64,000 nt of DNA. Source: Mobula hypostoma. Its lineage: Eukaryota. The translations under genes were made by a program, and so were the position numbers. Every line of letters starts with the position of its first letter. The first letter of the stretch is position 1. Below are positions 4,733 through 57,169 of the stretch, piece after piece. The stretch is taken from the NCBI RefSeq assembly GCF_963921235.1, contig NC_086097.1:47184001-47248000 (forward strand). Reading direction: 5' to 3'. A model generated the notes under the pieces. It saw nothing but the letters and a program-made list of their open reading frames with translations, was not told the origin of the DNA and made no database searches.

Positions 4733-5777
4733 CTCCTCCCCTTTTATTTTAATAGTGTATCAACTTTTTTTTACTGGGGCACTACGCTAAACAAATATGT
4801 TTACCCTTTACATACAAATGCCTACCAATTGTTTACTTAGTAATTTAATAATATCAAATTACAAATTAATGTAATAATATCAAATTATAACAAGCCTTTT
4901 TTTTACTTTTGGTCTAAGACCCATTTATAACTCAAGTCCCTGGGGGGACTCTGCCCACTATGCTGTACTTCTCTAGATGATTATGTACCAGCGGTAACAG
5001 AAGAAATCAGTGAAGCTGTAGCAAAATTAGTCATATTGCTCAAGAGGCGTGATGCATTTTTCGTAGCTTTGGTTTCCATGGTCTGCTTCAAAGATGACTT
5101 GCCGCCAATAAAAGAAATGGTTGGTGATCTGCCGTCTCTGCTAGTTATTCAAAAGTCGGGGCAATCCAAAGACTCACAGAAAGAACAGTACTTTACCAGT
5201 AATCTTTCACCGTTTGATGAAGCAGTTGATCGAAATCCTGTTGTTCATTCCGCTGTTCTTAAACTGCAGTTAAAGTACAGTGTTGCTGATATTAAGGATG
5301 ACCTGCAGTGCTATCTGTCTGGCCCAAGAGGGAGAGTTCCTTCAGATGCACATTCAGCCACAAGTGTGAAAATACAACAATAGAAACCTATTGTTTTATT
5401 TGTTTTCCTGTCATGGGATGGCTGTGTAAATATGCTGTACTGTATCTGCTCTATGATATGCTGTGCTGCTTTGTAAAATAAGAATAATAATAAAAATTTG
5501 AATTATAAAAACAATAGAAACCTTACAGTTTGTTGCCAGAATTCGCCTCTGTTTTGATGCTGTTTCCCAACCTCTTTGTGCAGAACGAGACACATTGCTG
5601 AGGATTCAAAATATGTACGTGCAAAAGAAACTTCTCTGCAAAGGGTTAAGTGTATGATTCTTAATGGAGGAAATGATTAGTTTGAGATTTACCGTGTGGG
5701 AAAGCTGTTCTGTTTGAATGGAATTGATTTTGTCCAAGAGCTTTTAAGGGATGACCAATTTTCATCGATCTTTTCCA

Positions 5778-6625
5778 AGGAAATTGTTCAGGAGAAGATG
5801 GAGATGCTGGTCTTTTCGGAGATTTATACTAATTGAGAGTTTACAGATCTTCCATTATCTGTTCATCTGTTAACAAGTAATTTAACTGCGCAGGTACAGG
5901 TTTTTGTCTTTTGTCTGTAATTGGAACAGGGTCATTAGGAATCCTCCTTAGTTTCCTTGTTATTATTGGCTTTACCTCCATAGATTCTCCTGTGAGTTCC
6001 ATTGTTAGCATCTCATTCTCAATCATCTTTTTCTTTTTTTCTAACTCAATGTTTTTAATCTTCAAATTCCTTCACTGCTGCTTTCTTCTCTTTAATATAA
6101 TTCCTTTCTCCTTGTTCTGTCTCCAGTTGCAGAAAAAACTCTATTTCATATTCTTTCCTTGTATTGTTGATCTAGTTTCTTCATCCTTTTCTGATACTCC
6201 TGCAAAGTGCCTTCCTGTTACTACCCTTTTGCCTATCACCTGTCCAGCTCTTGGCTCTATCCCTCCCCCTCCTGTCTTCTCCTATCATTTTGCATCTCCC
6301 CCTCCCCCTCCCACTTTCAAATCCCTTACTCACTCTTCCTTCAGTTAGTCCTGACGAAGGGTCTCGGCCTGAAACGTCGACTGTACCTCTTCCTACAGAT
6401 GCTGCCTGGCCTGCTGCGTTCACCAACAACTTTGATGTGTGTTTCCTGTTACTACTGTAGCTGTCTTTTGAGAGATGTCAATTTCTTCTGGTACATCTGC
6501 TCTTTTACTTCCAGGTAGTCTTCATCATCCTGCTTATTAGCAATATCTGTCTCCCTGTCGACGCTGTCCAGTTCCTCGTCGTCATTGTAATAGTCGACAA
6601 TGGGTGAGAGGAGAGCTGTGGACAT
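5778..6625 (-). pseudogene. SUDS3: Processed (intronless) pseudogene of Sin3 HDAC complex subunit SDS3
   Basis: Reads [158 protein letters not shown]. This matches vertebrate SUDS3 as recalled. It has several stops and deletions, one TE insertion, no introns and lacks the C-terminus. Confidence 0.93.
6225..6442 (+). mobile_element. Penelope-like element 3' end fragment inserted in the SUDS3 retrocopy
   Basis: Same sequence as the 3' end of the Penelope element at about 41135-41355. 13-bp TSD TTCCTGTTACTAC at 6212-6224 and 6443-6455. Confidence 0.9.
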
Positions 6626-6649
6626 CTTCCCCACCGAGCTGCCCTCCTT

Positions 6650-7811
6650 CGTTGATACATCTAGTGCCTTGATGGTGTGCCAATCCAACTGGATTTTCCT
6701 GAGCCATTCACATTCCAGCAATGGTGGTCCTCCATTTTTCAGTACCTAGAGGCTCAGTTGCTATGTTTTATCTCCGTAGGTCACTGTCACTTCAATTTTG
6801 CCTTTGGGATGCACTTTCTGTCCTGTGTAGGTTTTTAGTAGAAGTTTCGTTCGTATCAGAGGTATGTGCAAAAACAGTTGTTTGTAGTCGTGTACAGAGA
6901 TCACTGTTAAAGCTGAGCCTGTGTCCAGCTCCATTTTCAGTCTCACACCTGCCACTTGTGGAGTGATCCATATTACTCTTCGATCATCTGTCTCCTTCAT
7001 GCTGTGAAGTTGCAGACAAGACAATTCACTTTTGTCAGATTCATTTTCATCAGAACTGCCTTCTTTCATTTTGTGCACATTGTTGTATTTTCCTTTCTGG
7101 GGTTTCTTGTTTCTCTGTATTTTGACCTTTTTCTGCTGTTTACTAGCTTTGCATACTCTGCCAATGTGGCCCTGTCTGCCACAGTTTCTGCATTCTTTAT
7201 CTTTAAACCAACAGTCATCTGGGTCATGTGACCTATTTCTTTCCTTCATTTCTGTTCAGTGACATATTTGTAGCATATTCCAGAGATTTTTGTTGTATCC
7301 CGGAAGCACCTCGTGTGGCTGTTTCCGTTGATATTGCAATGTTCAGCGCCTTCTCTAATGTAAGGTACCTTTCACACAGAAGCTTCTTCTGTGTGGTTTC
7401 ACAGTGCATGCCACACACTAGCCTGTCCCTCAATGCATCCGATAGACCCGTTCCAAATTGACAATGTTCTGATAATTTGCGCAATTCAGCACAATATTCA
7501 GAAATGCTTTCATTTTTGCTCTGATTCCGATTGTGAAATTTAAATCTTTCAGCAATGCCCAGCGGTTTGGGGTTTAAATGCTGTTGCAGAGTGTCTACTA
7601 TTTGCTTGAACGTTTTGTCAGCTGGCTTTTCAGGGGTTAACAAGCTCCGTAGCAGGCCGTATGTTTTTGCTTCCATAATACTAAGTAAGACGCTGATTTT
7701 CTTTTCATCATTAACATTGTTAGCATCACAATATAACTCCACTTTTTCAATGTAAATTACCCGGTCTTCAATGCTACTATTAACTGCTGTAATGGTTCCA
7801 ATCATCATCAT
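6650..7811 (-). pseudogene. Retrotransposon gag-protease (frameshifted, with stops)
   Basis: ORFs 7233-7811 and 6761-7249. Gag motifs ERFKFH.R.Q...ESISEY.AELR.L..HC.FG..L.DALRDRLVCG, zinc knuckle CRNCGRQGHIGRVC, aspartic protease LDTGSA, and protease end GGPPLL..EWL..I.LDW. Confidence 0.9.
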
Positions 7812-7924
7812 CTTTGTTACGTTAATTTAGCCCTGTTCTCCCTTTTTTTTGATTCACGTGACCTTTTTGCTACCGCCACAAGCGCACTCCATCTAGATGT
7901 TTGTGTCGCTCCTTTTTATCTCCC

Positions 7925-11442: not shown

Positions 11443-13172
11443 ATGTTGATTATGGGGAGCAAGGACATGGCAGACCAATTGAATAATTACTTTGGTTCTG
11501 TCTTCACTAAGGAGGACATAAATAATCTTCCGGAAATAGTAGGGGACAGAGGGTCCAGTGAGATGGAGGAACTGAGGGAAATACATGTTAGTAGGGAAAT
11601 GGTGTTAGGTAAATTGAAGCAATTAAAGGCAGATAAATCCCCAGGGCCAGATGGTCTGCATCCCAGAGTGCTTAGCCCAAGAAATAGTGGATGCATTAGT
11701 GATAATTTTTCAAAACTCTTTAGATTCTGGACTAGTTCCTGAGGATTGGAGGGTGGCTAATGTAACCCCACTTTTTAAAAAAGGAGGGAGAGAGAAACCA
11801 GGGAATTATAGACCAGTTGGCCTAACATCAGTGGTGGGGAAACTGCTAGAGTCAGTTATCAAAGATGTGATAACAGCACATTTGGAAAGTGGTGAAATCA
11901 TCGAACAAAGTCAGCATGGATTTGTGAAAGGAAAATCATGTCTGACGAATCTCATAGAATTTTTTGAGGATGTAACTAGTAGAGTGGATAGGGGAGAACC
12001 AGTGGATGTGGTATATTTGGATTTTCAAAAGGTCCCACACAGGAGATTAGTGTGCAAACTTAAAGCACACGGTATTGGGGGTAAGGTATTGATGTGGATA
12101 GAGAATTGGTTGGCAGACAGGAAGCAAAGAGTGGGAATAAATGGGACCTTTTCAGAATGGCAGGCAGTGACTAGTGGGGTACCGCAAGGCTCAGTGCTGG
12201 GACCCCAGTTGTTTACAATATATATTAATGACTTGGATGAGGGAATTAAATGCAGCATCTCCAAGCTTGCGGATGACACGAAGCTGGGTGGCAGTGTTAG
12301 CTTTGAGGAGGATGCTAAGAGGATGCAGGATGACTTGGATAGGTTGGGTGAGTGGGCAAACTCATGGCAGATGCAATTTAATGTGGATAAATGTGAAGTT
12401 ATCCACTTTGGTGGCAAAAACAGGAAAACAGATTATTATCTGAATGGTGGCCGATTAGGAAAAGGGGAGGTGCAACGAGACCTGGGTGTCATTATACACT
12501 AGTCATTGAAAGTGGGCATGCAGGTACAGCAGGTGGTGAAAAAGGCGAATGGTATGCTGGCATTTATAGCAAGAGGATTCGAGTACAGGAGCAGGGAGGT
12601 ACCACTGCAGTTGTACAAAGCCTTGGTGAGACCACACCTGGAGTATTGTGTGCAGTTTTGGTCCCCTAATCTGAGGAAAGACATCCTTGCCATAGAGGGA
12701 GTACAAAGAAGGTTCACCAGATTGATTCCTGGGATGGCAGGACTTTCATATGATGAAAGACTAGATGAACTAGGCTTATACTCGTTGGAATTTAGAAGAT
12801 TGAGGGGGGATCTTATTGAAACGTATAAAATCCTAAAGGGATTGGACAGGCTAGATGCAGGAAGATTGTTCCCGATGTTGGGGGGGGGGTCCAGAACGAG
12901 GGGTCACGGTTTGAGGATAAAGGGGAAGCCTTTTAGGACCGAGATTAGGAAAAACTTCTTCACACAGAGAGTGGTGAATCTGTGGAATTCTCTGCCACAG
13001 GAATCAGTTGAGGCCAGTTCATTGGCTATATTTAAGAGGGAGTTAGATATGGGCCCTGTGGCTAAAGGGATCAGGGGTATGGGGGGGAAGGCTGGTGCAG
13101 GGTTCTGAATGGCGGTGCAGGCTCGAAGGGCCAAATGGCCTACTCCTGCAGCTATTTTCTATGTTTCTATGT
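11443..13172 (+). mobile_element. CR1 LINE, 5'-truncated, disrupted ORF2 (copy 1)
   Basis: RT motifs KSPGPDG, NYRPV.LTS, GVPQGSVLGP and ADDTK. Has a frameshift and a stop. Tail TTTCTATG repeats. Confidence 0.95.
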
Positions 13173-33100: not shown

Positions 33101-35388
33101 CATTTACCCGTATTGCACAAGTGTGCTAGCTATTCCACAAATTCGCAACAACTACTTGGAAAGAAAATCGTTTAGGACTCAGAACCAGTTGGGTTGGAAT
33201 GATGAAAGAGCAGAAATAGGAAGCTACTGTGCCATTGCAAATTGCATTAAAGTCTTAGCTTTAATATCGGTATTGCCAGGCCGAAACAAGTTGGACTATA
33301 GAAGAGGCAGAGAGGCTGCAGGTGGACAAAGACATTTGAAAGCTAGTGTTTGATCTCCATAGAGGAAGAAATCACACCTATATACTGCCCTCATGGACTC
33401 TGGTGGAGGCTACAGATGAAAACAGTGATATGGTTGCCTGGCTGAGAAAATCCCAGGGTGATCAAGAAGCATGGGAGCATACTTCTCCAAACTCTCACAG
33501 GAGTCTCTGCAGAGCTGGGAATGTAATCCTGATTCTGATTGGGATTTTGGTATTGTCATTCCCAATGGGCAATGGGTCAGAGTAATACAGTATGGAAACA
33601 GGCCCTTCAGCCCATCAGATTCATGCCAGTCACAGCATCTTCCCTGCTAGTCCCAGTGCCCACATTTGGCCTGTAACTCATCAAGGACACCGCCCCCCCC
33701 AACACCGCCATTTACCTATCCAAATGCCTCTTAGCAGCTTTCTACTACCATGAAAGCACAAGAGGAAGCCATCCAAAAGCTTTGGGTTTCTGCGAATTCT
33801 CAGGACACTTCCATTAGAATTCATCTTAGCACTACCCTAGTAGGTAGTTCTTAACCAAAGGTAATGTAATAGCTGCTGGGAGCAGGCTTCTGCAAGAACA
33901 AAAAGTCCAAAGTGGGTGCTGTTCGTCCTGAGCACAGCAACTGTCCTGTTGTGTTGTTTAAAAGTTTTAGTTTCTAGATCTACGTGCTCTGGATTGTTTA
34001 TTCATGATGAAGCTAGAGGTAAAATCTTCTAGAAATAAGTTCCCACTTGTGTTCTGACATGAAAAATCAACTCTCATAATCTAATCTAATCTAATCTTTC
34101 TCTTTCCACAGATGTTGCCTAACCAGCGTGTTTCTTGCACTCTTTTTTAATTTTCAAGTTCCCAATTTTACTTTCAGCAGAAGAAAGCAGAAGCCTAAAT
34201 TCAATAGTCGTTAAAAAAACAAGAAAGCGGAGAATGCTGGACAAGTAAACTCTGTCTGCTCATTGAAGTACAAGCCAAACTTCTGCTGTTTTATAATGTT
34301 GGCAAGATATATGGAGTTCCTCTAAATAGATATTCAGAGGTGGTGTTATGAGACTCTTGAATACAAAACCTATCACTATATCCAAAATAGATTTTTAGAC
34401 TTAAGGTTTTGTAATTAATATAATATACACTTTGTTGTTATATAATTAACTATGACATATGTTGGAAAAAGAAACAGCTACACATTTTAGCAGCTCTCTG
34501 AATCTTTTCTTGCTTTGTCCACTTTAGAAGGAGGAACACAAGCACATTACAAATCTGCTGAAAGGATAGGAGACCAAGAAAGAGAATGTAAGTCTTTGAG
34601 TCTGTTGGTGTGCATGGGTAAAGAGTTTATGAGATGAGTCTGGTTGCAATGTCTTTTCTGGTAATAAAATGGGAGCCCAACCTGACTGTGGCCATTATGG
34701 GCCCAGGTGGTTATGAAATTGCTTCCGTGCCCAACTCAGTTATTGCTGGGTGTATAGCATTTAAAAAGTGCTGTTTGGCCAGGGAGCTCACTCTATTCTA
34801 GATGCCTCTGACCACTTTTTCTAACTTAAATTAATGCAAAGATTAATTTCAGTCAATAGCAAACGCTATATCCTGAAAGAAATAATAATCAGATAAAAGC
34901 ACAGGAGAAGTCAAGAGTGTAACAGCATGAACAGGACAAAATAACAGCTCACACTTAAAGTGCATGTGCTCTTAATTTGTATATGGACAGGTGCGTGAAC
35001 CTTTCAAACAGAAAGCACAGAAATGTATTTTTCTTTCAGCAAATAATATAGTGAAAGTGATGATATTCCTGCACAATGGATTGTTAGAAATCTATTCTAT
35101 CTGAATAGATTCTGATTTATACATTCCATTAGCAAATATTTGATGGTAAGCGAGTAATAATCTGCTTGGGAAAGTAGCGCAAAAGTTATAAGATAATTTT
35201 AATAGCTAAGACTTCTGAAATTAGGAGATACACCAATGGAGAACTAGGAATTAGACGTTCGTCGAGGCTCTGAGTGAGTATACGTTTGTGTTGAAAAAAG
35301 TGTCTCAACGTGGTTTTGATGTTTTATCAATATTTTCTGATTCTCCAAAGATTTTCGATCTTGATACAAAATTGTGATATCTAAGGAA

Positions 35389-36845
35389 TGGCTAATGTAA
35401 CCCCACTTTTTAAAAAAGGAGGGAGAGAGAAACCGGGGAATTATAGGCCGGTTAGCCTAACGTCGGTGGTGGGGAAACTGCTGGAGTCAGTTATCAAGGA
35501 TGTGATAACAGCACATTTGGAAAGCGGTGAAATGATCGGACAAAGTCAGCATGGATTTGTGAAAGGAAAATCATGTCTGACGAATCTCATAGAATTTTTT
35601 GAGGATGTAACTAGTAGAGTGGATAGGGGAGAACCAGTGGATGTGGTATATTTGGATTTTCAAAAGGCTTTTGACAAGGTCCCACACAGGAGATTAGTGT
35701 GCAAACTTAAAGCACACGGTATTGGGGGTAAGGTATTGGTGTGGGTGGAGAATTGGTTAGCAGACAGGAAGCAAAGAGTGGGAATAAACGGGACCTTTTC
35801 AGAATGGCAGGCGGTGACTAGTGGGGTACCGCAAGGCTCAGTGCTGGGACCCCAGTTGTTTACAATATATATTAATGACTTGGATGAGGGAATTAAATGC
35901 AGCATCTCCAAGTTTGCAGATGACACAAAGCTGGGTGGCAGTGTTAGCAGTGAGGAGGATGCTAAGAGGATGCAGGGTGACTTGGATAGGTTGGGTGAGT
36001 GGGCAATCTCATGGCAGATGCAATTTAATGTGGATAAATGTGAAGTTATCCACTTTGGTGGCAAAAATAGGAAAACAGATTATTATCTGAATGGTGGCCG
36101 ATTAGGAAAAGGGGAGGTGCAACGAGACCTGGGTGTCATTATACACCAGTCATTGAAAGTGGGCATGCAGGTACAGCAGGCGGTGAAAAAGGCGAACGGT
36201 ATGCTGGCATTTATAGCGAGAGGATTCGAGTACAGGAGCAGGGAGGTACTACTGCAGTTGTACAAGGCCTTGGTGAGACCACACCTGGAGTATTGTGTGC
36301 AGTTTTGGTCCCCTAATCTGAGGAAAGACATCTTTGCCATAGAGGGAGTACAAAGAAGGTTCACCAGATTGATTCCTGGGATGGCAGGTCTTTCATATGA
36401 AGAAAGACTGGATGAACTGGGCTTGTACTCGTTGGAATTTAGAAGATTGAGGGGGGATCTGATTGAAACATATAAGATCCTAAAGGGATTGGACAGGCTA
36501 GATGCGGGAAGATTGTTCCCGATGTTGGGGAGGTCTAGAACGAGGGGTCACAGTTTGAGGATAGAGGGGAAGCCTTTTAGGACCGAGGTTAGGAAAAACT
36601 TCTTCACACAGAGAGTGGTGAATCTGTGGAATTCTCTGCCACAGCAAACTGTTGAGGCCAGTTCATTAGCTATGTTTAAAAGGAAGTTAGATATGGCCCT
36701 TGTGGCTACAGGGGTCAGGGGGTATGGAGGGAAGGCTGGGTTCTGAGTTGGATGATCAGCCATGATCATAATAAATGGCGGTGCAGGCTCGAAGGGCCGA
36801 ATGGCCTACTCCTGCACCTATTTTCTATGTTTCTATGTTTCTATG
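35389..36845 (+). mobile_element. CR1 LINE, 5'-truncated, young, with uninterrupted RT/C-terminal ORF (copy 2)
   Basis: 452-aa ORF 35388-36746 with LDFQKAFD, GVPQGS and FADD. Tail (TTTCTATG)3. Imperfect TSD TGATATC(T)AAGGAA. Confidence 0.96.
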
Positions 36846-39142: not shown

Positions 39143-41398
39143 AATGCTGGTGAACGCAGCAGGCCAGGCAGCATCTCTAGGAAGAGGTACAGTTGATGTT
39201 TCGGGCCAAGACCCCTCGTCAGGACTAACTGAAAGAAGAGCTAGTAAGAGATTTGAAAGTGGGAGGGGAAGGGGGAGATCTGAAATGATAGGGGAAGCTG
39301 TGATAGCGAGTCTGAGTCAAAATGTGGTAGAAAAGTTGAAGAGTCGAAGAAATTACAGATGGGGAGCAGTGAGAGATGGTTTCACTGAACTCCCGTTGAA
39401 GAAAACATTTAAACTTCTTCAGTGTAGGCATCACCGGAAGAGGCTTCGCAGTAGTGAATTTAAAAACGCAAACACGGGGAATTCTGCAGATGCTGGAAAT
39501 TCAAGCAACACACATCGAAGTTCATCTCTAGGAAGAGGTACAGTCGACGTTTCCTTCGAGATCCTTCGTCAGGACTAACTGAAAGAAGAGATAGTAAGAG
39601 ATTTGAAAGTGGGAGGGGGAGGCTACCCAGACGGAATATAAGGTGTTGTTCCTCCAACCTGAGTGTGGCTTCATCTTTACAGTAGAGGAGGCCGTGGATA
39701 GACATATCAGAATGGGAATGGGACGTGGAATTAAAATGTGTGGCCACTGGAAGATCCTGCTTTCTCTGGCAGACAGAGCGTAGGTGTTCAGCGAAACGAT
39801 CTCCCAGTCTGCGTCGGGTCTCGCCAATATATAGAAGGCCACATCGGGAGCACTGGACGCAGTACATCACCCCAGCCGACTCACAGGTGAAGTGTCGCCT
39901 CACCTGGAAGGACTGTCTGGGGCCCTGAATGGTAGTGAGGGAGGAAGTGTAAGGGCATGTGTAACACTTGTTCATCTTACAAGGATAAGTGCCAGGAGGG
40001 AGATCAGCGAGGAGGGAGATGGGGGGAACGAATGGACAAGGGAGTCGCGTAGGGAGCGATCCCTGTGGAAAGCAGAGAGAGTGGGTAGGGAAAGATGTGC
40101 TTAGTGGTGGGATCCCGTTGGAGGTGGTGGAAGTTACGGAGAATAATATGTTGGACCTGGAAGCTGGTGGGGTGGTAGATGAGGACAAGGGGAACCCTAT
40201 TTCTAGTGGGGTGGTGGGAGGATGGAATGAGAGGAGATGTGTGTGAAATGGGGGAGATGCGTTTGAGAGCAGAGTGGATGGTGGAGGAAGGGAACCCCTT
40301 TCTTTAAAAAAGAAGGACATCTCCTTCATCCTGGAATGAAAAGCCTCATCCTGAGAGCAGATGCAGCAGAGACAGAGGAATTGTGAGAAGGGGATGGCAT
40401 TTTTGCAAGAGACAGGGTGAGAAGAGGAATAGTCCAGATAGCTCTGAGAGTCAGTAGGCTTATAGTAGACATCAGTAGATAAGCTGTCTCCAGAGACAGA
40501 GACAGAAAGATCTAGAAAGGGGAGGGAGGTGTCAGAAATGGACCAGGTAAACTTGAGGGCAGGGTGAAAGTTGGAGGCAAAGTTGATGAAGTCAATGAGC
40601 TCAGCATGCGTGCAGGAAGCAGCGCCAATGCAGTCGTCGATGTAGCGAAGGAAAAGCGGGTAACAGATACCAGAATAGGTTTGGAACATAGATTGTTCCA
40701 CAAAGCCAACAAAAAGGCAGGCATAGCCAGTAGATTGTTCCGCTGAACACCTTCGCTCTGTCCGCCAGAGAAAGCAGGATCTTCCAGTGGCCACACATTT
40801 TAATTCCACATCCCATTCCCATTCTGATATGTCTATCCATGGCCTCCTCTACTGTAAAGATGAAGCCACACTCAGTTTGGAGGAACAACACCTTATATTC
40901 TGTCTGGGTAGCCTTCAACCTGATGGCATGAACATTGACTTCTCAAACTTCCGCTAATGCCCCACCTCCCCCTCGTACCCCATCCGGTATTTATTTATAT
41001 ACACACATTCCTTTTCTCTCTCTCTCCTTTTTCTCCCTCTATCCCCCTCACTATACCCCTTGCCCATCCTCTGGTTTCTCCCCCCTCCCCCTTTTCTTTC
41101 TCCCTGGGCCTCCTGTCCCATGATCCTCTCATATCCCTTTTGCCAATCAACTGTCCAGCTCTTGGCTCCATCCCTCCCCCTCCTGTCTTCTCCTATCATT
41201 TTGGATCTCCCCCTCCCCCTCCCACTTTCAAATCTCTTACTAGCTCTTCTTTCAGTTAGTCCTGACGAAGGGTTTCGGCCCGAAACGTCGACTGTACCTC
41301 TTCCTAGAGATGCTGTCTGGCCTGCTGCGTTCACCAGCAACTTTGATGTGCGTTGCTTGAAATTCCAGCATCTGCAGATTTCTTCATGTTCACGTTTT
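39143..41398. mobile_element. Penelope-like retroelement complex: RT plus GIY-YIG endonuclease on minus strand, with inverted and partial-tandem terminal repeats
   Basis: RT motif FLRYIDD and GIY-YIG motif GVMYCVQC..C.LLYIGET.R.L..RF.EH in ORF 39460-40809. Inversion point near 40730, with a plus-strand 3' end to 41398. A tandem 5' ORF start lies at 39298-39460. Confidence 0.92.
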
Positions 41399-46814: not shown

Positions 46815-46993
46815 TTACTTCTGAGCTGGGATAAGGCTGTCAATGGCCTGGCCTTTTTCAAGGCATTTCTCCATTTCAATTAGCAGCTTTACACCATCGA
46901 CCACCATTTGAACCAATTCAACTTCAGAGAAGCCTAGGCGGTCAGCATTGGAAATATCAAAAATACCACCAACTGCAGCTGTGTCAACTCCAC
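46815..46993 (-). CDS. ckb: Creatine kinase B-type, last coding exon (exon 8, 179 nt including TAA)
   Basis: tag|[64 protein letters not shown]. Confidence 0.98.
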
Positions 46994-48072
46994 CTAGCAA
47001 GAAAGGAACAGCAAACCGTATTAGTATACTTGTAGCTGCTTTACAGAAGCCACTTCAATACAAAAGAAATACTAAAAATTGTCATCTAAAGCTATGCACA
47101 TGAATTTTATCTTAAACCTGGATGATTTGCATGTTAAAACAACATACCAAAAGTGAAAGTTAACAAATGGCAAGTGTATTTAAAAACATTCCATGTTCCT
47201 TACTTGTACTGTAGTGAATGCCAGCAAAATTTGAAATAACTTATCTGCAGTAGGTTTTGTTTAAAAATGATGTTTAACTACCCCAGTTAACAATTGGGGA
47301 ATTGTGTTCTTCTGCTGTATTCAAATCATCTTGTGCTAATGTACATGAGCACAGGTAGGAAGAGCAAAGAATATTTGAACTTTTGAGCTCCAATGTTTCC
47401 TAATGTAGGCAGAAATGCATCACACTTTAAACATGTGTATGTTTAAGCACTGGAAACAAAAATAGCAACTAATTTATAACAAGTCAGAGTTATGGTGGGA
47501 TGAATGCCAGAACTCGTGATAATCCAAACAGAAGGGGTTTTGATCTATTTAACAAAGTCCAAATTTGGCTGAAAAGCTAACCGCTTTTTTTTGTTAAAAT
47601 CTTGAAATACAAAGATGGTATTTGGAGAATGGCAGAGCATGATGTGTCCAGGCTACTTGCACACAACTGAGGTTTAAAGTCACATGAAAGTTTGATTTAC
47701 TCCTATGCACACACAAAAAGCTACAATTTTCCTTCTTAAAGTTAGAGCAGTATTTTAGGTCCTTAATTGTTCCAAGAAAATCGAGCAAACCAAGAATATC
47801 ATTGAGACATTAGTAAGACAGATGTAATCTGGAACCAGATTTATGGGTAATTTTGAAAGGTTATGTGTATAGATTACATCTGTCCAAAAATCTTCCTAAA
47901 AAAAAAAACAGTAGTTAAAGTTGTGCTTCTGACAGAATGCAGGAAATCAACTGTTCCAGCTTTTCATGATCAAGAAAATAATTTAGAGTGGTGATCCAGT
48001 CATTTACTGCCAAAACAAGTGCCCTGCATCAGAACATACTGCACTTCCACTGTCAGGTAAAATCCAACTCAC

Positions 48073-48262
48073 CTGTGCCACGCTTCTGCAGTCGCAGTCG
48101 TTTCAGAACCTCGCCAAATTTTTCGTGTTTGCTGAGATTGGGCAGTTTCACATGAACACCAGCACGCAGGCCAGTCCCCAGGTTAGATGGGCATGTCAAG
48201 ATGTAGCCAAGGTGCTCATTCCACATAAATGCATGGCCATTGCTTTTGAAGAGATTTTCAAT
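48073..48262 (-). CDS. ckb: Creatine kinase B-type, exon 7 (190 nt)
   Basis: IENLFK...[52 protein letters not shown]. Active-site CPSNLGT intact. AG/GT borders. Confidence 0.98.
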
Positions 48263-48344
48263 CTATGATTTAAAAGAAATAGTTCAAAGAAAAATACAAA
48301 GTAGTTTTAGACAATTACTGACTCTCAGTAACACTCAATTGTAC

Positions 48345-48468
48345 CTTTGATAGTCCAGTGCAGAAACGGGTGAAGACTTCCTTCATGTTTCCACCTTTCT
48401 GCATGGAGATAACACGAAGATGATCTTCTTCATTTACCCAAACGAGGAAAGTCTTATTGTTATTATGC
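48345..48468 (-). CDS. ckb: Creatine kinase B-type, exon 6 (124 nt)
   Basis: [41 protein letters not shown], with the NEED box. AG/GT borders. Confidence 0.98.
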
Positions 48469-49068
48469 CTGGAAAACAGGTTCAATTTGGAACAAGCCAA
48501 TTAATATCCTGGACCAAAAAAAAGTAATTTTGCTTTATTAAGAGTGTAAGCTTTGACAAAAATTCTATTACATCAAAATACAATTCCTTCAGGCATTATT
48601 TTTATCTAAATTTGTATCACACTAGAATTCTTTGGCCAAAAGACGGTCCTCAATTTGCCAACATAGCCAAGGCTGATTGAAGAAAGTGAAGAGAAGATAG
48701 CTACTTTGTCTTAATATGACAAAAATTAAAATCCATTAAGGAATGGGCTACATGTTTGGGCACAGAACTTAATACAATTGCCCAGGAAGTGGAGTCATCT
48801 AAATAGGTTAGGTACAGAAATATCATCTTCCACATAAAGCCAACCTAGTGGAAGTCATCAATTAGCTAATTATACAACAGCTAACTGAAGTTAAACAGAT
48901 CTGTGAAATCCAAAAATAACTCTTCTTGCTGAAGCTGAACCATACCACTTTCCACCACCCCACCCAAACCAACCAAGATCATAACATTAAAAACCTTCCA
49001 AGAATTATAAAAAATGTACTCATTCAGTAAAGGGAATATATATATTTTTTTAATATAAATAAAGTTGT

Positions 49069-49140
49069 TTGTTGACCTTTCAAGAAAAAAGGACTCCCAA
49101 CTAATTGTTGACCTTTCAAGAAAAAAGGACTCCCAACTAA
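49069..49140. repeat. Perfect 36-bp tandem duplication in ckb intron 5
   Basis: TTGTTGACCTTTCAAGAAAAAAGGACTCCCAACTAA twice. Confidence 0.95.
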
Positions 49141-49253
49141 TTTCACCCCAGCTGGTCAATCAATTTATCCTCATCAGATGCAAAGCTTCCAGCATGCTGC
49201 AATATTGTAAACAAAGCCATTCTCAATCTTTTACTCCCAAGCCAGGAACCAAC

Positions 49254-49425
49254 CAAATGCCTCTGCCATCAGGCCAGTCACGAGCCATCCCAGAGGCCAG
49301 CAGCAATGGAGACACAGGCTTGTCAAACAGGAAGTGGTCATCAATTAGGGTCTGCTGTTCCTCGTCAGTCATGTTCTTCAGGGCATAGTATTTTCCAGAA
49401 AATTCACCATCTAGACTTTTCAAAC
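49254..49425 (-). CDS. ckb: Creatine kinase B-type, exon 5 (172 nt)
   Basis: [61 protein letters not shown] borders. Confidence 0.98.
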
Positions 49426-49999
49426 CTAGAGAAAAGGAAAGTTACATTGCAAGAACTGTTTTTACAACTTGATAAGTTAGTTCCTCCAAAAGGAAGTTTT
49501 CCTTTAGTTTAGATAAAAGGAGTTGCATTTATATGAAATGATTTGTGATTTTCTAAACATCTAGATATACTTATAGCTTAAAGTATCTATGAAGTCTCCT
49601 GAGATCGAGCCAAGCAGGCACCAAAACAACAATGTGACAATGATCTGTTGAAGAAATGTTGAGAGCACATCTTAAAAATATATTTCTATAGGGAATTAAA
49701 GAGCTTCACTGAAATAACACTGAACCTGTATATAATGTACACCTTGAAAGCCTGTATTTAGGTAACATTAGATAAATTAGTCAGATCTCAGGATTGGTTT
49801 ATATCAAAATTGTAGAGATTATGTGCTTTTAAAAAAAAATCATAATCACCAGGGTCATCAGCAGTATACTGAGGGCAGTTGTGACCCTGAGGAAGAGCAG
49901 ACGCACATGCATCTACAACTTATTATGTGGCAAAAGATTGCAGCGACAGGAATGGGCTCTTTTGTGCTTGGAAATGAGGAAGTTCACATCAGTATATCA

Positions 50000-51343
50000 T
50001 GGAGTCAGTTATCAAGGATGTGATAACAGCACATTTGGAAAGCGGTGAAATGATCGGACAAAGTCAGCATGGATTTGTGAAAGGAAAATCATGTCTGACG
50101 AATCTCATAGAATTTTTTGAGGATGTAACTAGTAGAGTGGATAGGGGAGAACCAGTGGATGTGGTATATTTGGATTTTCAAAAGGTCCCACACAGGAGAT
50201 TAGTGTGCAAATTTAAAGCACACGGTATTGGGGGTAAGGTATTGGTGTGGGTGGAGAATTGGTTAGCAGACAGGAAGCAAAGAGTGGGAATAAACGGGAC
50301 CTTTTCAGAATGGCAGGCGGTGACTAGTGGGGTACCGCAAGGCTCAGTGCTGGGGCCCCAGTTGTTTACAATATATATTAATGACTTGGATGAGGGAATT
50401 AAATGCAGCATCTCTAAGTTTGCGGATGACACGAAGCTGGGTGGCAGTGTTAGCAGTGAGGAGGATGCTAAGAGGATGCAGGGTGACTTGGATAGGTTGG
50501 GTGAGTGGGCAAACTCATGGCAGATGCAATTTAATGTGGATAAATGTGAAGTTATCCACTTTGGTGGCAAAAATAGGAAAACAGATTATTATCTGAATGG
50601 TGGCCGATTAGGAAAAGGGGAGGTGCAACGAGACCTGGGTGTCATTATACACCAGTCATTGAAAGTGGGCATGCAGGTACAGCAGGCGGTGAAAAAGGCG
50701 AACGGTATGCTGGCATTTATAGCGAGAGGATTCGAGTACAGGAGCAGGGAGGTACTACTGCAGTTGTACAAGGCCTTGGTGAGACCACACCTGGAGTATT
50801 GTGTGCAGTTTTGGTCCCCTAATCTGAGGAAAGACATCTTTGCCATAGAGGGAGTACAAAGAAGGTTCACCAGATTGATTCCTGGGATGGCAGGTCTTTC
50901 ATATGAAGAAAGACTGGATGAACTGGGCTTGTACTCGTTGGAATTTAGAAGATTGAGGGGGGATCTGATTGAAACGTATAAGATCCTAAAGGGATTGGAC
51001 AGGCTAGATGCGGGAAGATTGTTCCCGATGTTGGGGAGGTCCAGAACGAGGGGTCACAGTTTGAAGATAGAGGGGAAGCCTTTTAGGACCGAGATTAGGA
51101 AAAACTTCTTCACACAGAGAGTGGTGAATCTGTGGAATTCTCTGCCACAGCAAACTGTTGAGGCCAGTTCATTGGCTATGTTTTAAGAGGGAGTTGGATA
51201 TGGCCCTTGTGGCTACAGGGGTCAGGGGGTATGGAGGGAAGGCTGGATTCTGAGTTGGATGATCAGCCATGATCATAATGAATGGCGGTGCAGGCTCGAA
51301 GGGCCGAATGGCCTACTCCTGCACCTATTTTCTATGTTTCTAT
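50000..51343 (+). mobile_element. CR1 LINE, 5'-truncated (copy 3), antisense inside ckb intron 4
   Basis: 395-aa RT ORF nearly identical to copy 2, with a TTTCTATG tail. Confidence 0.96.
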
Positions 51344-52894
51344 ATATAAAAGAATATCAAGGAACTCCAGTTTCAGGTAGTGCCAGAGCACCTCTTCAAG
51401 CACCTCAAGAAATATTTTTAAATTATGCAACCAGTCCATGATCCCACTACTGGGACTCAGATGTGGGCCATTTGTATTATTAGGTTAGCTACCTGTAATT
51501 ATAGGTTCAGTCTGAGCATCTCTTGGTGGCCAGAAAAGTAACCAAAATAAAAAACTCATCTCAAAACACCAAAATGGCAATAGTCAGGTTAGGGTGGAGT
51601 TTGGACCAGAATTCCTGGTGTATACTGGGATGCACCATGTGGGTTTTAACAATGCACATTGGAGATGCTGTTTTGAGGAATTTTACTGTCTGATGCACTG
51701 TGAGGCTTAAACATTCTGAAATATATTATTCTTGTTAACTTTTGCCAGAGTCATAATTTGGGGAAAAACTGTTACATTTCCCCTAGACCTTAAAGTTGAA
51801 GTGTCTCAAGCAGAAGATAAGTGAAGATTACAAGTTGGTCTTGTAAAATCCTTTCTTGCCAAAATAGCACATTTAAAAATGCCAAAATATACATAGTTTT
51901 GAAAGACAGTATAATGAGAAACTAAGATGTAGTGAGATATCATCCCCTCAAAGCTTTCCGCACAACTTGATTTTATAATCTGAAACATATGGTCCAGAAA
52001 TTTTCCTGAAGTTCTACAATTAGTCCCTCCTCCCATGAGCTACAGTAACACGTGGCAGTTTACAGTTAATCCCACAATTGCAATGTTACTGGACACATAC
52101 TTGCAATTCAGAGTGTAAAGTTTTATGGTACTGACTCATTTTCTGGACAAGAGGGAGTACTTGGTGAGAGCCCAAGTCTTCATTTAAAGGCAACATTTCA
52201 GTCTCTCAAAACTAATTTCCTTTCGAACATTAAAACAATATGTAATTGAGATGTACACTTCCTTGCTCAGTCTTAAAAATGAAACCCCATTAGTTTGTAT
52301 ACAAAATTGGAGCCAGTAGCTGATATTTTAAACACTACAGAATTTGACAAGAGGTCACAAGTTAACAGAATAGAAGTATTCATTTCCATAAATGGTTCAA
52401 CTATGCAAGTTACTTTCCACAGACAAATGGAAATAGCATTACCAGTAAAGCTGAAACACTAGATTAGCTTGAAGCTTGTGGGTTTTGTTTAGGGAAATGA
52501 AATAACTTAGTTCCCATTTCAGGCAAGAAACACCTCGTGTTCAGAGATGAGTCAGTTAACAGGACTTTAGTTTCTTTGGCAGAAATAATCCTTGTGTGGG
52601 GCTGGGAAAAGGGTGCAGTATGGCAATTCAAGAGCTGTCGATTGTTTATGAAGATAACACAATAATGTAAAATCTTCAGGCAAAAGGAAATGTAGAAAAC
52701 AGAATAGACATTACTGTAAATATTCAGTAAGAATACAAACAAGTTGATGTCACAATTCTCTTCTGAATTATCAGTGCTCATTCTCCAGAAGTGTGTGAAA
52801 ACAAGGTCTTGGATTCTGTTTTGAGGAAACTTGATTTTCAAAAACTTTATCAGCTATTTAAAGGTTAAAGCATATTATGCCCTTTTGATCTTAC

Positions 52895-53027
52895 CGTCCT
52901 CTGAAAGTTTCTCAATAGCACGGCGCTCCCCTCGGCTACAGTGAGGGGGAAGGCAAAAGCCACGAATACTGCGGCCAGTGCGGACTCTGCTACTCAGCAC
53001 ATAGTTAGGATCCAGGTCATCACCACC
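52895..53027 (-). CDS. ckb: Creatine kinase B-type, exon 4 (133 nt)
   Basis: [44 protein letters not shown]. tag|GG and G|gtaag borders. Confidence 0.98.
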
Positions 53028-53145: not shown

Positions 53146-54512
53146 TAATTTCAGATCAGATTCATCTTGGACTATTGCCCAGATTATAGTACACCATAAT
53201 CGTGTAGGGAAACAATAAATTGGCAAGTAACATACTTTAAGGCATCTTTGCATTTGGCACAAAAGTGAGTTTAAATATTCATTGCAGCTTCATTTGGAGT
53301 TGGAATGCAAGCTCAGACCTGAACAGAGCAGGTGCACTTTCCATATTATTTGACAAATGCCAATAAATGCAGTTGTTGGTCAGAAGGAGAAGAACAAATC
53401 CAAGACATGCTACTTATGAGACTGGTACAATGTTGACACAAGGGCACCTTGAGGAAGGGCACCTTGTATTCTCAAAATGTCAAAACCAGATGTGGGGAGG
53501 GGGAAAAAAACAGGGACAGTTAAATCTAATGACAGTCAAAACAACCACTACTAGGCAAAATATTGGGGAGAGGAAAAAAGGCTTCCGAAGTCTGTGGATT
53601 TGATAATATAATGAGAGCCTTAATTTGTATCATAATTGGAGATATTTTAGGATTCCATTTATTAAAACAAGTTTTCTACAAATTAGACTATTATCTTCCT
53701 ATCACAAGCAAAATTTTTTAGTGAATGGAAACTCATTATCAAATTGTTCAAGGGTATTTAAATCCAATCATCCTATTTTACAAGGCAAAATAATGTTAAA
53801 GTATTGAATTGAGAATCCTGGCTGGATTCAACAGATAATTACTGGGTGTTAAAACACTTCCCATAGTTTTATTTTTACTAAGTCACCTTTCATAATCTCA
53901 GGATGCCATAAAACATTTACATCCAACCCCACACTTCAATATGGTCACAACTGCAGGAAATGTGCATCTAAATTAATGTGCAGCAAATTCTCATGGAAAA
54001 CAAAGTAATATTTATAGAGGTAGATTCTAATGTTTTATTGTGCTCCCTGCAGAGATTTATTTCTTGTGCTATGCATTCCAAATATCAACGTGGAGCATAA
54101 ACTGATAACTACAGCACTTCATTTAAAGTTTATTCTGAAACCACTCCCCCCTCCAGGAGTGGAATGGGGCAGCAGGGTTACTTGGAAGGGGAGATTGAAA
54201 GGCATGTATGGTTAGGGCACTCAACTCCCCGGCTTCACTTCAAAGTAGAGTCCCAAGATCTTTCAGGAGATCACAACCACATGAGAATTTCATGTCCCAT
54301 GGAAAAGGGATGCCTTCTTCCCCTTCTGCACTAAAATGTCAACCAGATTTTTGTGTGCTCAAGTCTTTGGAGAGTACTTGAACCCACGATTTTATGACCG
54401 AGGCAAAAACTAGATCAAGACCACTAAGGCTAGTATGTTAGTTTATTCTTTAAAATGCATTGGAATTCAACCTATACTTGTGTTTAGTAAAGAAATGAAC
54501 CCATTGTCTAAC

Positions 54513-54667
54513 CTTGAGCTTCTCCGAGTGAAGGTCAGTTTTGTGCTTGTCACTAGGTTTGTAGCCACCATGGCGGTCCCGAATAACTGGATCAAAAAGA
54601 TCTTTGAAAACCTCGTAGCTTTCTTCATCTCCAGCAACACAACCTACTGTCATAATAAATGGGTGAC
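54513..54667 (-). CDS. ckb: Creatine kinase B-type, exon 3 (155 nt)
   Basis: [55 protein letters not shown] borders. Confidence 0.98.
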
Positions 54668-55129
54668 CTAGATACAAAAAGAACAATTACAGGTAGCGCT
54701 TCTTTCACCACATCCGCTTAGAATGTCAGACAATATCCGCTGACTTTTGAAAGGAGTACTCAGCTGCATTTATTTTACAATGGGAGGGAAGGAAAGAAGA
54801 AGGGGGAAGGGGTCACATCATTCAGTTCTTTTGCCTTACGAGTTATTCAAGTTAAATCTTGAGAGGAAACATTCTGCAATATGAGTATTACAATAATGAA
54901 CAGAGACAAGCATCTTAAAAACGATTAATTAATAGACCAATTTAGTGGGTTATTTCAGGAGTACAAAAATAACAGGCAGTGTGCTTAAATCAACGGCAAT
55001 CGGTTTTGGTCACGGTGCTGATTTACGGAGGGTCAAACCAATCCACAGTCCCGCATTCTAACTGGATTAGTATATTTTGCGTCAAAGTAGAGGGATTTCG
55101 TACTATTCCAGGCAATCTAAGTGTTTTAG

Positions 55130-55317
55130 CAGGATTACCAATCCATCACACAAGATGAAGCCAGTGGGGATTGACTTGCCTTCCCGCTTCTTGCAAAGGT
55201 CGGGAGAGAGCACTAACCATAACCATGTGGCCATCGTGCTGACTCAAAGCGGGAAACTCCTCTGCTGGCCACCGCCTCTCTAGCCAAGCAGCAGCGACGT
55301 GCGAGGAGTCACAACTA
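55130..55317 (-). pseudogene. ckb: Decayed duplicate (alternative) exon 2 of ckb
   Basis: Reads LERRWPAEEFPALSQHDGHMV / VLSPDLCKKREGKSIPTGFILCD / G..NP across two frameshifts. The polypyrimidine acceptor is intact. The donor reads G|CTAAA instead of G|GTAAA, and there is no ATG at the expected start position. Confidence 0.85.
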
Positions 55318-55602
55318 CTTTAAGGAAATAAAACGCGGAAAATGAGCAGCAGCACCCACCAACCCCAGCACAGAAAGCCCTTGGCTGTAATCCATTCTAG
55401 CAGATTTATTGGAGAGCGGAAAGCCAGGATACTGGCTGCTTTACTTACTATTTATAACATTTTCCGTAGCTTTGAATCAATGATGCCCTTTATTCTGTGG
55501 TGGGCTGGATAACAACCAAGCGCCAAGTTGATGTTAAAAATTTCCCTAAACTAACTTGTGCCCACCTTATAAAGCAACACTTCTCCACGGAGGAGGGTTT
55601 AC

Positions 55603-55795
55603 CTGGGTTGTCCACTCCAGTCTGAATGATATCGTCAAGGGTAAATCCGCTGGGGGTCTGCTTATCTCGCAACTTGCTGTACATCTCCGGGGTCAGGACT
55701 TTGGCCATGTGGTTGTTGTGCTTGCTCAAATCTGGAAATTCGTCCTTGGAAGAATATTTCATTTTCAGGAGGTTGTGACTGTTGCTGAAGGGCAT
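55603..55795 (-). CDS. ckb: Creatine kinase B-type, first coding exon (exon 2; 193 coding nt, exon starts at 55807)
   Basis: CACCATG start. [42 protein letters not shown] is a B-type N-terminus. Coding exons 193+155+133+172+124+190+179 = 1146 nt = 381 aa plus stop. Confidence 0.98.
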
Positions 55796-56948
55796 GGTGA
55801 CGCTTTACTGTAATGCAAACAGCTTCAGGAGTTAGGTTTGATCGCCGAAAGAAATGGCTTCTCGAAGCGCGGATTTGATTGAACGCATTGGGTCCAGTTT
55901 ACCAGAGATACACTGAACGCTATACGACGAACACGAATTCATCTCATTTGCAGATTTTTACTTAAAGAAAATAGGCCATTTAGCGCGAACTTTGAAGCTG
56001 CACAATTATTCGAAATTATCAAAGTGATTGGCGTCCGTGATCGAAATAAACTTCTGCGCGAGTATGGTAAAGTCTCTTGCACATTTTAGACACTTTAATA
56101 TATTGCAGGACGACGTAGGTCATGGCAGTACTCCAACCCGCAAAACTCAATACAGTATAAAGGATGCTTTTAAACGAAAATCCGACTTTTGACATTAAAG
56201 TCCCTAACTGATGGTCATTTCCGACATTTGAAAGAAATACATGTTCTCGATTAACTGCCAGCATTTCCTGGGTAATTTTACAATTCTTTGGCGTGGCTGA
56301 AAACCACGGGATTCTCAAATAGCGTTACGATTACGTAAATTTCTCATCCTTCGTGACCCTATCGCGCTGTATTTCATACAAGATTTATGAAGGACAATCC
56401 AAGTACATTAAATCTGTGATAACGTCTACAAATCTTGGATTAGAAACAAAGCATTTACTCTCAACAGATTAGTGCAGGCATCATTCACAATTTTTAACAA
56501 ATATCTTATTCGCAGTTTAAGTGTATACTATGATACAAGGTTATTAATAAAGATTAAACTCATTCTATTGGCACTGATAAATTGTGTGGATTTTCATCTA
56601 ACGCGCATTCCTTCAATATTGTATTAGAATGCAAAGGTTGATTTACCAATCAGTAAATACTCCGGCTAATCCTTACATTTAACGATGCATTTAAATAGAT
56701 GCTTCAAGATTAGGCTTAACCACTATTACATTTAATACACGTCTTATTCCAACTGAACTTCGTTATGATGTTCCTCTTATTTCGTCTACTCGTGCTTTTG
56801 TCTTAAGGCAAGAAATTGCATTTAATTTGCATTAGGTTACTTTCCACTTAATCCAAAAACAGCGTTGAAATCTTTCCCGAAGCAAAATAAATAAAAAATG
56901 TTTTAATTTTAGTTTACTAGCTGATTTTGATTTTCATAAAGACATTAC

Positions 56949-57040
56949 CTGAATAAGCAAGGAAATTGAGGCACCAATTTAATTCTAAGCCCGTGCTTCC
57001 CACTTTATCCCGATCTCCGCACCACCCTGATTGGTGTCCG
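56949..57040 (-). other. ckb: Probable non-coding exon 1 of ckb (start approximate)
   Basis: Donor CAG|GTAAT at 56949, located just downstream of the TATA/CCAAT/MEF2 cluster. Vertebrate CKB has a short non-coding first exon. Confidence 0.65.
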
Positions 57041-57119
57041 AGCGATGGGTGAGCTCCCATTGGATTATATAGTGCAGAAGGGCCGCCATCTCATTGGCCG
57101 CTAAATTTAGTCCCATTCA
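57030..57119 (-). promoter_or_regulatory. ckb: ckb core promoter: MEF2-type box, CCAAT boxes, YY1-like site, TATA box
   Basis: CTAAATTTAG at 57101-57110 fits YTAWWWWTAR. CCAAT at 57093-57097, 57059-57063 and 57030-57034. GATGGCGG at 57083-57090. TATATAA at 57065-57071. CpG-rich context. Confidence 0.8.
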
Positions 57120-57169
57120 CGGCGCGATTTGTCAATCAAAGGGGTGCGTGTCGAAGAGGATGTGTCGAA

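Follow-up and report, generated by a model that had tools for sequence, protein, structure and literature searches.

To our knowledge, the alternative use of two N-termini, Ba and Bb, in B-type creatine kinase (B-CK) is known only from chicken. Wirz et al. reportedly described these N-termini in 1990 (J Biol Chem 265:11656, PMID 2365692). A single CKB gene carries two tandem start exons, Bb followed by Ba, which give rise to subunits of 381 and 376 amino acids that are identical after exon 2. A literature search on Ba/Bb outside chicken found nothing, although most work on creatine kinase (CK) evolution sits in subscription journals beyond the search; the string 'splic' is absent from PMC3080659. 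According to parts of two surveys (PMC4494069; Martinez-Gomez et al. 2021, PMC8373072), most tandem homologous exons arose no later than in the jawed-vertebrate ancestor; neither CKB nor creatine appears in their main texts and searched supplements (2/3 files and 1 file, respectively). As set out in sections of the former, paralogs may keep both exons or divide them among themselves, a course termed 'splice isoform separation' and exemplified by CACNA1C/D versus CACNA1F/S (Abascal et al. 2015, PMC4494069). Tandem exon duplicates lying in introns are missed by annotation, as stated in parts of a further study (Ivanov and Pervouchine 2022, PMC9013439), and CKB is not mentioned in those parts.

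The window analyzed here, i.e., the whole stretch of 64,000 nucleotides from Mobula hypostoma, carries a complete creatine kinase B gene (ckb) on its minus strand. The spliced CDS equals P0425, the Mobula hypostoma creatine kinase B-type record, and 3 residues differ from M. birostris. Four runs (X5, X17, X19, and X20) were placed on positions 54450-57150, their RNA nature being the tool's guess, backed by spliced joints. The non-coding exon 1 (56949..57031, minus strand as are all ckb features below; 5' end approximate, with contigs extending to 57031-57039) is followed by a GT donor and joined to the working exon 2b (56949 -> 55807) at a depth of 11,111 in X5 and 46 in X17. Exon 2b (55603..55807), with its ATG at 55795, contributes 64 codons plus one base and is of the Bb type, in agreement with the sequence-only reading that preceded this analysis. 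Its joint to exon 3 (54513..54667) reached depths of 14,308 (X5), 78.5 (X17), and 1,167 (X20), and exons 4-8 follow at 53027-52895, 49425-49254, 48468-48345, 48262-48073, and 46993-46815 (span 46815..53027). A rare later donor lengthens exon 1 (joint 56677 -> 55807, depth 7.2 versus 11,111 in X5; window 56677-56978). Elsewhere in the window, open frames at 5841-6745 (minus) and 4931-5383 (plus), which we take to be SUDS3-like, look like parts of a cellular gene that a short repeat interrupts and are possibly retrocopies; they gave no Pfam match, with only a weak BRE match (E=0.083) for the plus-strand frame. Positions 11627-13108, 35385-36746, 39460-40848, and 6761-7826 presumably represent retroelement remains, namely LINE-type reverse transcriptases, a Penelope-like frame, and a gag-protease-like piece.

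Between exon 2b and exon 3, on the same strand as ckb, lies a 188-nt segment (55130..55317) that, judged by its sequence, is very likely a decayed, non-functional orthologue of the CKB Ba-type alternative exon 2 (hereafter exon 2a or dead exon). Place and strand are as the sequence-only reading had given them, and its estimate of about 290 bp downstream of exon 2 was close, the exact distance from donor to acceptor being 285 nt (55318..55602, from sequence and boundaries); another 462 nt separate the segment from exon 3. On its upstream side, a pyrimidine tract and AG are present (55318..55342), with a second AG 3 nt on, the exon starting at 55317 or 55314. On its downstream side, the boundary check found CT for GT at the donor (55128..55129), so that the two splice sites are not both intact; the kept acceptor and the GT>CT change had both been recognized before. 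Codons 1-25 of the Ba exon can be followed without a gap (55224..55298), mostly with single-base changes versus shark Ba, and GTC occupies the start position (55298-55296). In the alignment to Ba exons, codons 26-27 are replaced by 10 nt (55214..55223), a net +4 frameshift, after which codons 28-50 (55145..55213) still show Lys35 and Ser41, both Ba-type; reading on in the frame of codon 1 leads into TGA at 55148-55146. Through a 13-nt deletion the exon end, the Gly-Ile-Asp-Asn-Pro region, is reduced to 15 nt (55130..55144), versus 28 in exon 2b. With GTC, the +4 shift, TGA, and the 13-nt loss, the dead exon has neither a start codon nor an open frame in phase with exon 3. The sequence-only reading had correctly seen a frameshift, a 3' loss, and the absence of ATG, and needs amendment in the particulars: an ATGGTT duplication, being 6 nt, would alone keep the frame, and what is found is 10 nt for 6 after His-Met; the loss comprises 13 nt, not the four codons for IIQT; and the ACG considered as a start remnant is located at 55300-55298. 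We rejected this ACG as a certain remnant of the start, since it misses the frame by 2 nt; such an origin is possible if a 2-nt insertion came after. Likewise rejected was the notion of the two indels (net -9) as a compensated frameshift, owing to the stop between them and the dead donor. A genome search found the DNA of the dead exon as a single copy, and in a second M. hypostoma sample (X5) the whole intron was recovered as a 991-nt contig with 0 differences from the window, so that the lesions are no assembly error.

As DNA, the dead exon aligns locally with the working exon 2 at a score of 66, the window background having a mean of 27 (sd 5) and a maximum of 55. When codon distances to the Heterodontus Ba exon were scanned, 55298 gave 30, compared with a mean of 75.9 (sd 4.3) and a minimum of 56 among 126,801 other positions; the latter were permitted a free gap of 0-15 nt, and the register had first been chosen by eye. 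The protein-level signal is weak, the best dead-exon piece reaching E=0.004 against the Ba profile; profile search alone barely told Ba and Bb apart (7.9 versus 6.6 bits), and a Pfam scan of both pieces returned no match. Counting minimum base changes over 48 codons, the dead exon lies 30-33 changes from 7 chondrichthyan Ba exons and 41-46 from 12 Bb exons, the Ba exons of coelacanth and birds being 36-41 changes away; 9 sites are fully diagnostic, among which 7 are nearer Ba, 1 is nearer Bb, and 1 is tied. Hence the likeness to Ba noted in the sequence-only reading is real, with the nearest relative being shark rather than avian Ba. The avian Ba exon cited there is present in database proteins, but the gapped register against avian RLPPEEEYP was one residue off: without a gap, ERRWPAEEFP corresponds to shark KRLSAEEEFP.

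The DNA alignment of the 3' three quarters of the dead exon with the ray's own exon 2b, together with the long branch of the dead exon in the tree, would also be in line with an exon 2 that was duplicated in tandem independently in this lineage and then decayed, its Ba likeness being convergent or due to chance. The first 39 nt do not fit such an origin: 31 positions differ from the ray's own exon 2b, versus 12-14 changes from chondrichthyan Ba over these 13 codons (19-22 from Bb), and a distance of at most 12-14 changes was equalled at 126 of 127,961 window positions. In a 53-row exon-peptide tree, Ba exons from birds, turtle, lizards, coelacanth, teleosts, and chondrichthyans came together in one clade of 20 rows (support 99/97), in which the dead exon falls among those of sharks; its exact place there is soft because it is a very long branch (2.56) of odd composition on 59 columns, for which the tree tool warns of unsure placement. 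An AU test on 24 of the 53 rows rejected uniting the dead exon with exon 2b of the same ray (p=0.003) or with five Bb exons of batoids (p=0.022). As sharks and chimaera moreover have intact Ba isoforms, we consider an independent duplication very improbable; the outcome that the sequence-only reading had named as refuting its view did not come about. Orthology with the Ba exon is further reflected in the 59-codon layout of the dead exon, with a Ba N-terminus and Ba-diagnostic residues, and the single Ba clade bears out the earlier proposal that the exon switch is older than the split of cartilaginous and bony fishes. As in a unitary pseudo-exon, the orthologue is intact in outgroups, the lesions are found here, and the gene has no working copy elsewhere.

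Ba-type proteins of 376 amino acids were found in Scyliorhinus canicula, S. torazame, Heptranchias, Heterodontus, Mustelus, Pristiophorus, and Callorhinchus (RefSeq/UniRef; P0397, P0399, P0401, P0403, P0404, P0434, P0412, and P0413), that is, in seven chondrichthyans other than this ray, and the isoform of the coelacanth Latimeria comprises 375 amino acids (P0417); further Ba-type records come from one turtle, two lizards, several teleosts, and birds. The intact shark and chimaera isoforms are named 'isoform X2' or 'testis isozyme', and among the names seen none points to Ba. Where both isoforms were listed, Ba and Bb do not differ beyond exon 2 in Scyliorhinus canicula, Heptranchias, Mustelus, Pristiophorus, Latimeria, and two birds (0 differences), and differ by 0-1 in Callorhinchus; they are therefore products of one gene, the exon structure in sharks being deduced from protein records. 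The chondrichthyan isoforms were taken from cluster listings that covered 15/22 and 15/21 members of two large clusters; of three homologue searches, the mixed-profile one reached sharks and rays, the other two being crowded by double-match proteins. Among the 120 matches listed in the first search, 117 were bird records in which a single model has the Bb start followed by that of Ba. Bird models reading through both exon 2 copies and lacking exons 3-4 made up 111 of the 120 matches listed (P0003-P0121), an annotation artefact explained by the tandem arrangement of the exons. The Bb-then-Ba order also appears in one lizard and one teleost model (P0187 and P0190) and is implied by a shark hybrid model with a Bb 5' and a Ba 3' part (P0398). 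Isoform X2 of possum CKB (P0250) was tried as a Ba candidate and rejected, as it groups with mammalian Bb in the exon tree; it has a different, shorter start exon, which is either a Ba exon altered by conversion or a duplicate of more recent origin. Teleost models with separate Ba-type CK genes exist (P0104, P0295, P0203, P0207, and P0294), with whole Ba-type genes that follow a Bb-type gene in tandem (Albula, Bagarius) or lie next to each other as copies (Aldrovandia), which suggests that in some teleosts the two isoforms were split into separate genes.

The sequence-only reading had spoken of a loss in this lineage; the lesions are indeed present in this ray, and the loss seems wider. None of the 10 named batoid records listed (9 species: skates, sawfish, electric ray, stingrays, and devil rays) is Ba-type and all are Bb-type, a soft count because annotation can miss isoforms, S. 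torazame being listed with Ba only, and because a diverged batoid isoform could sit in a cluster outside those listed. On the basis of this annotation, the count suggests that exon 2a was lost early in batoids. The four carpet-shark CKB records (P0405, P0406, P0407, and P0312) are likewise Bb only, without an isoform label, and carpet sharks have perhaps undergone a second loss.

Sequence divergence among rays bears on the timing of the loss. Runs X19 and X20 are taken to stem from other rays in view of 90-95% intron identity. Over the dead exon plus flank, X19 differs from the window at 35/391 letters, compared with 6/201 in exon 2b; over the whole intron, X20 differs at 96/926 letters, compared with 7/201 in exon 2b; intron 1 differs at 63/1,172 and 66/1,152 letters. 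The dead exon thus shows no sign of purifying selection, with a divergence of ~9-10% to X19/X20 versus ~3% for exon 2b, where the counts refer to exon plus flank. Compared with the window, the X19 contig shows deletions only (391 letters on 401, 10 gaps), and the 13-nt loss is therefore common to X19 and the window. Depth dips in the bin 55178-55268 indicate that ~9 (X19) and ~22 (X20) further letters are missing within the exon; most lesions in X19 and X20 are deduced from such dips, and the X20 insertions could include the 13 nt. One listed difference, common to X19 and X20, restores the consensus Ser at codon 44, indicating that decay continued in the Mobula line. Taken together, exon 2a would have died well before the split from the X19/X20 species, perhaps on the batoid stem.

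Exon 2b was used in all four runs. None of the five joints listed in them involved 55317, 55314, or 55130, with contigs dropping rare variants; in X5, where the intron contig had a depth of 11.3 versus 14,308 at the exon 2b-3 joint, minor joints were still detected at depths of 7-10. These data also bear on the reading that the segment is dead as coding sequence but rarely used as a poison or start-codon-less exon by way of the surviving acceptor and a cryptic donor, turning CKB output down in some tissue. The apparently intact pyrimidine tract and AG, a loose end in X19 at 55337 with similar sequence upstream, and a donor-like GT (55138-55137) 8 nt ahead of the dead donor would all accord with such a use. 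However, no joint was found at either site in any of the four runs, and the divergence of the segment is at intron level, not below that of intron 1, so that we rate a regulatory use as highly unlikely.

For a decayed orthologue of the Ba exon, the following course of events is the most likely. In the ancestral jawed-vertebrate gene, as the isoform pairs show, exon 1 was joined to either of two start exons lying in tandem. Both had a start codon of their own and entered exon 3 in the same phase, with exon 2b leading to the 381-aa Bb subunit and exon 2a to the 376-aa Ba subunit; the two subunits differed only in their first ~60 residues. In the ray, where start codon, frame, and donor of exon 2a are gone, the stretch would be removed with intron 2 and only Bb would be made. 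The surviving acceptor defines no exon, the donor being absent, and skipping of exon 2a, seen in the four runs, is expected to occur in all tissues. We infer that its decay was neutral.

Two further cytosolic-type CK loci are present in the genome, CKM on contig C40 and a divergent gene on contig C22 (G000:C22:42085000-42116000, L005-L008), which has one additional coding exon upstream and a second exon resembling Ba, and which matches the carpet-shark 'creatine kinase M-type-like' protein and teleost zgc:172076. With its Ba-like start and a Thr-Pro-Arg at similar acceptor spacing, this second exon brings up yet another origin of the dead exon, namely insertion of a copy from another CK gene such as the zgc:172076-like paralog. 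Over 144 nt, though, it differs from the dead exon at 77 positions, versus 71 each for exon 2b and CKM; the Asn-Asn-His-Met-type and Lys-Ser-type residues found in the dead exon are those of CKB Ba rather than of the C22 gene, and the dead exon occupies exactly the position of the Ba exon in other vertebrates. The probability of such an insertion appears next to nil, and descent in place from the CKB Ba exon is the reading we retain.

The same loci allow a tentative look at deeper history. The aligned zgc:172076-like proteins, four in number, all lack R96, R130, H191, E231, H296, and R320, and three of the four also lack R132 (hamster CKB numbering). We take these positions to be catalytic or substrate-binding. 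From such alignments, the family probably represents a conserved pseudo-enzyme; a literature search, at the level of listings, found no paper on the zgc:172076-like gene. All three CK loci are arranged tail to tail with a KA1-domain match 10-63 kb away (G000:C1:47168041, C22:42126380, and C40:37953195), accounting for three of the five KA1 matches in the genome, and a fourth strong KA1 match is on contig C82, on which no CK match was found. These neighbours are presumably MARK-type genes, as judged from the human synteny of CKB and CKM, and the pairing at three loci is as expected of ohnologues beside MARK kinases. Another candidate synteny marker, Pfam PF09311, gave a match at a single locus, on contig C71, and was uninformative. 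In the exon tree, whose 53-row version did not include the C22 row, zgc exons grouped with Ba (82/93) and CKM with Bb (90/88), both under the tool's star threshold. If the zgc exon is Ba and that of CKM is Bb, the two-exon state would be older than at least the later duplication. Neither the 9.9 kb surrounding CKM exon 2 nor 49.6 kb of the C22 locus yielded a relic of a second exon, and a search of the Atlas with the C22 exon gave a single match at 0.75 and was uninformative. Six unnamed environmental or raw-assembly proteins with a Ba-length N-terminus (P0497, P0579, P0452, P0449, P0459, and P0554) join the Ba side of the tree and may be CKs of invertebrate chordates. About 60 kb before the mitochondrial-type CK locus, a second CK-like exon set (G000:C63:63463247-63475379) was noticed, a tandem copy or relic. 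On balance we lean, by a small measure, towards the view that the Ba/Bb pair predates the cytosolic CK genes and at least the last vertebrate genome duplication, with CKM keeping only Bb, zgc keeping only Ba, and CKB keeping both, and with the Ba exon of CKB later being lost several times (in rays and skates, perhaps carpet sharks, and most mammals) or, in some teleosts, ending up in genes of its own.

As to its significance, the fossil exon together with the intact isoforms of sharks, chimaera, and coelacanth pushes the origin of the switch to the jawed-vertebrate ancestor or earlier. The loss of exon 2a becomes datable, and common lesions could mark relationships among batoids. Binding of CK to the M-line depends partly on N-terminal lysines, and N-terminal residues help isoenzyme targeting in M-CK, as stated in a portion of PMC2175123; with the residues swapped between Ba and Bb lying in this CK targeting region, sharks versus rays provide a natural comparison for the role of Ba. 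A fossil alternative exon is of a known kind and involves no new mechanism, and the intact isoforms were already in RefSeq, albeit unnamed.

Compared with the systems outlined at the beginning, CKB, CKM, and the zgc:172076-like gene appear to follow the splice isoform separation described in sections of PMC4494069. The surveys of PMC4494069 and PMC8373072 begin from human genes, and the ray case adds to them an exon that is lost yet readable. Like the cases in the portions considered of PMC9013439, the dead exon is an unannotated exon-like paralog in a neighbouring intron; unlike the young duplicates and candidate new exons dealt with there, it is the relic of an old functional exon. The Ba isoforms of sharks, chimaera, and coelacanth are its direct orthologues, but intact. 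With chicken B-CK, finally, the ray shares the layout of one gene with tandem start exons, Bb then Ba, and differs from it in that its Ba exon is dead and shark-type in sequence.
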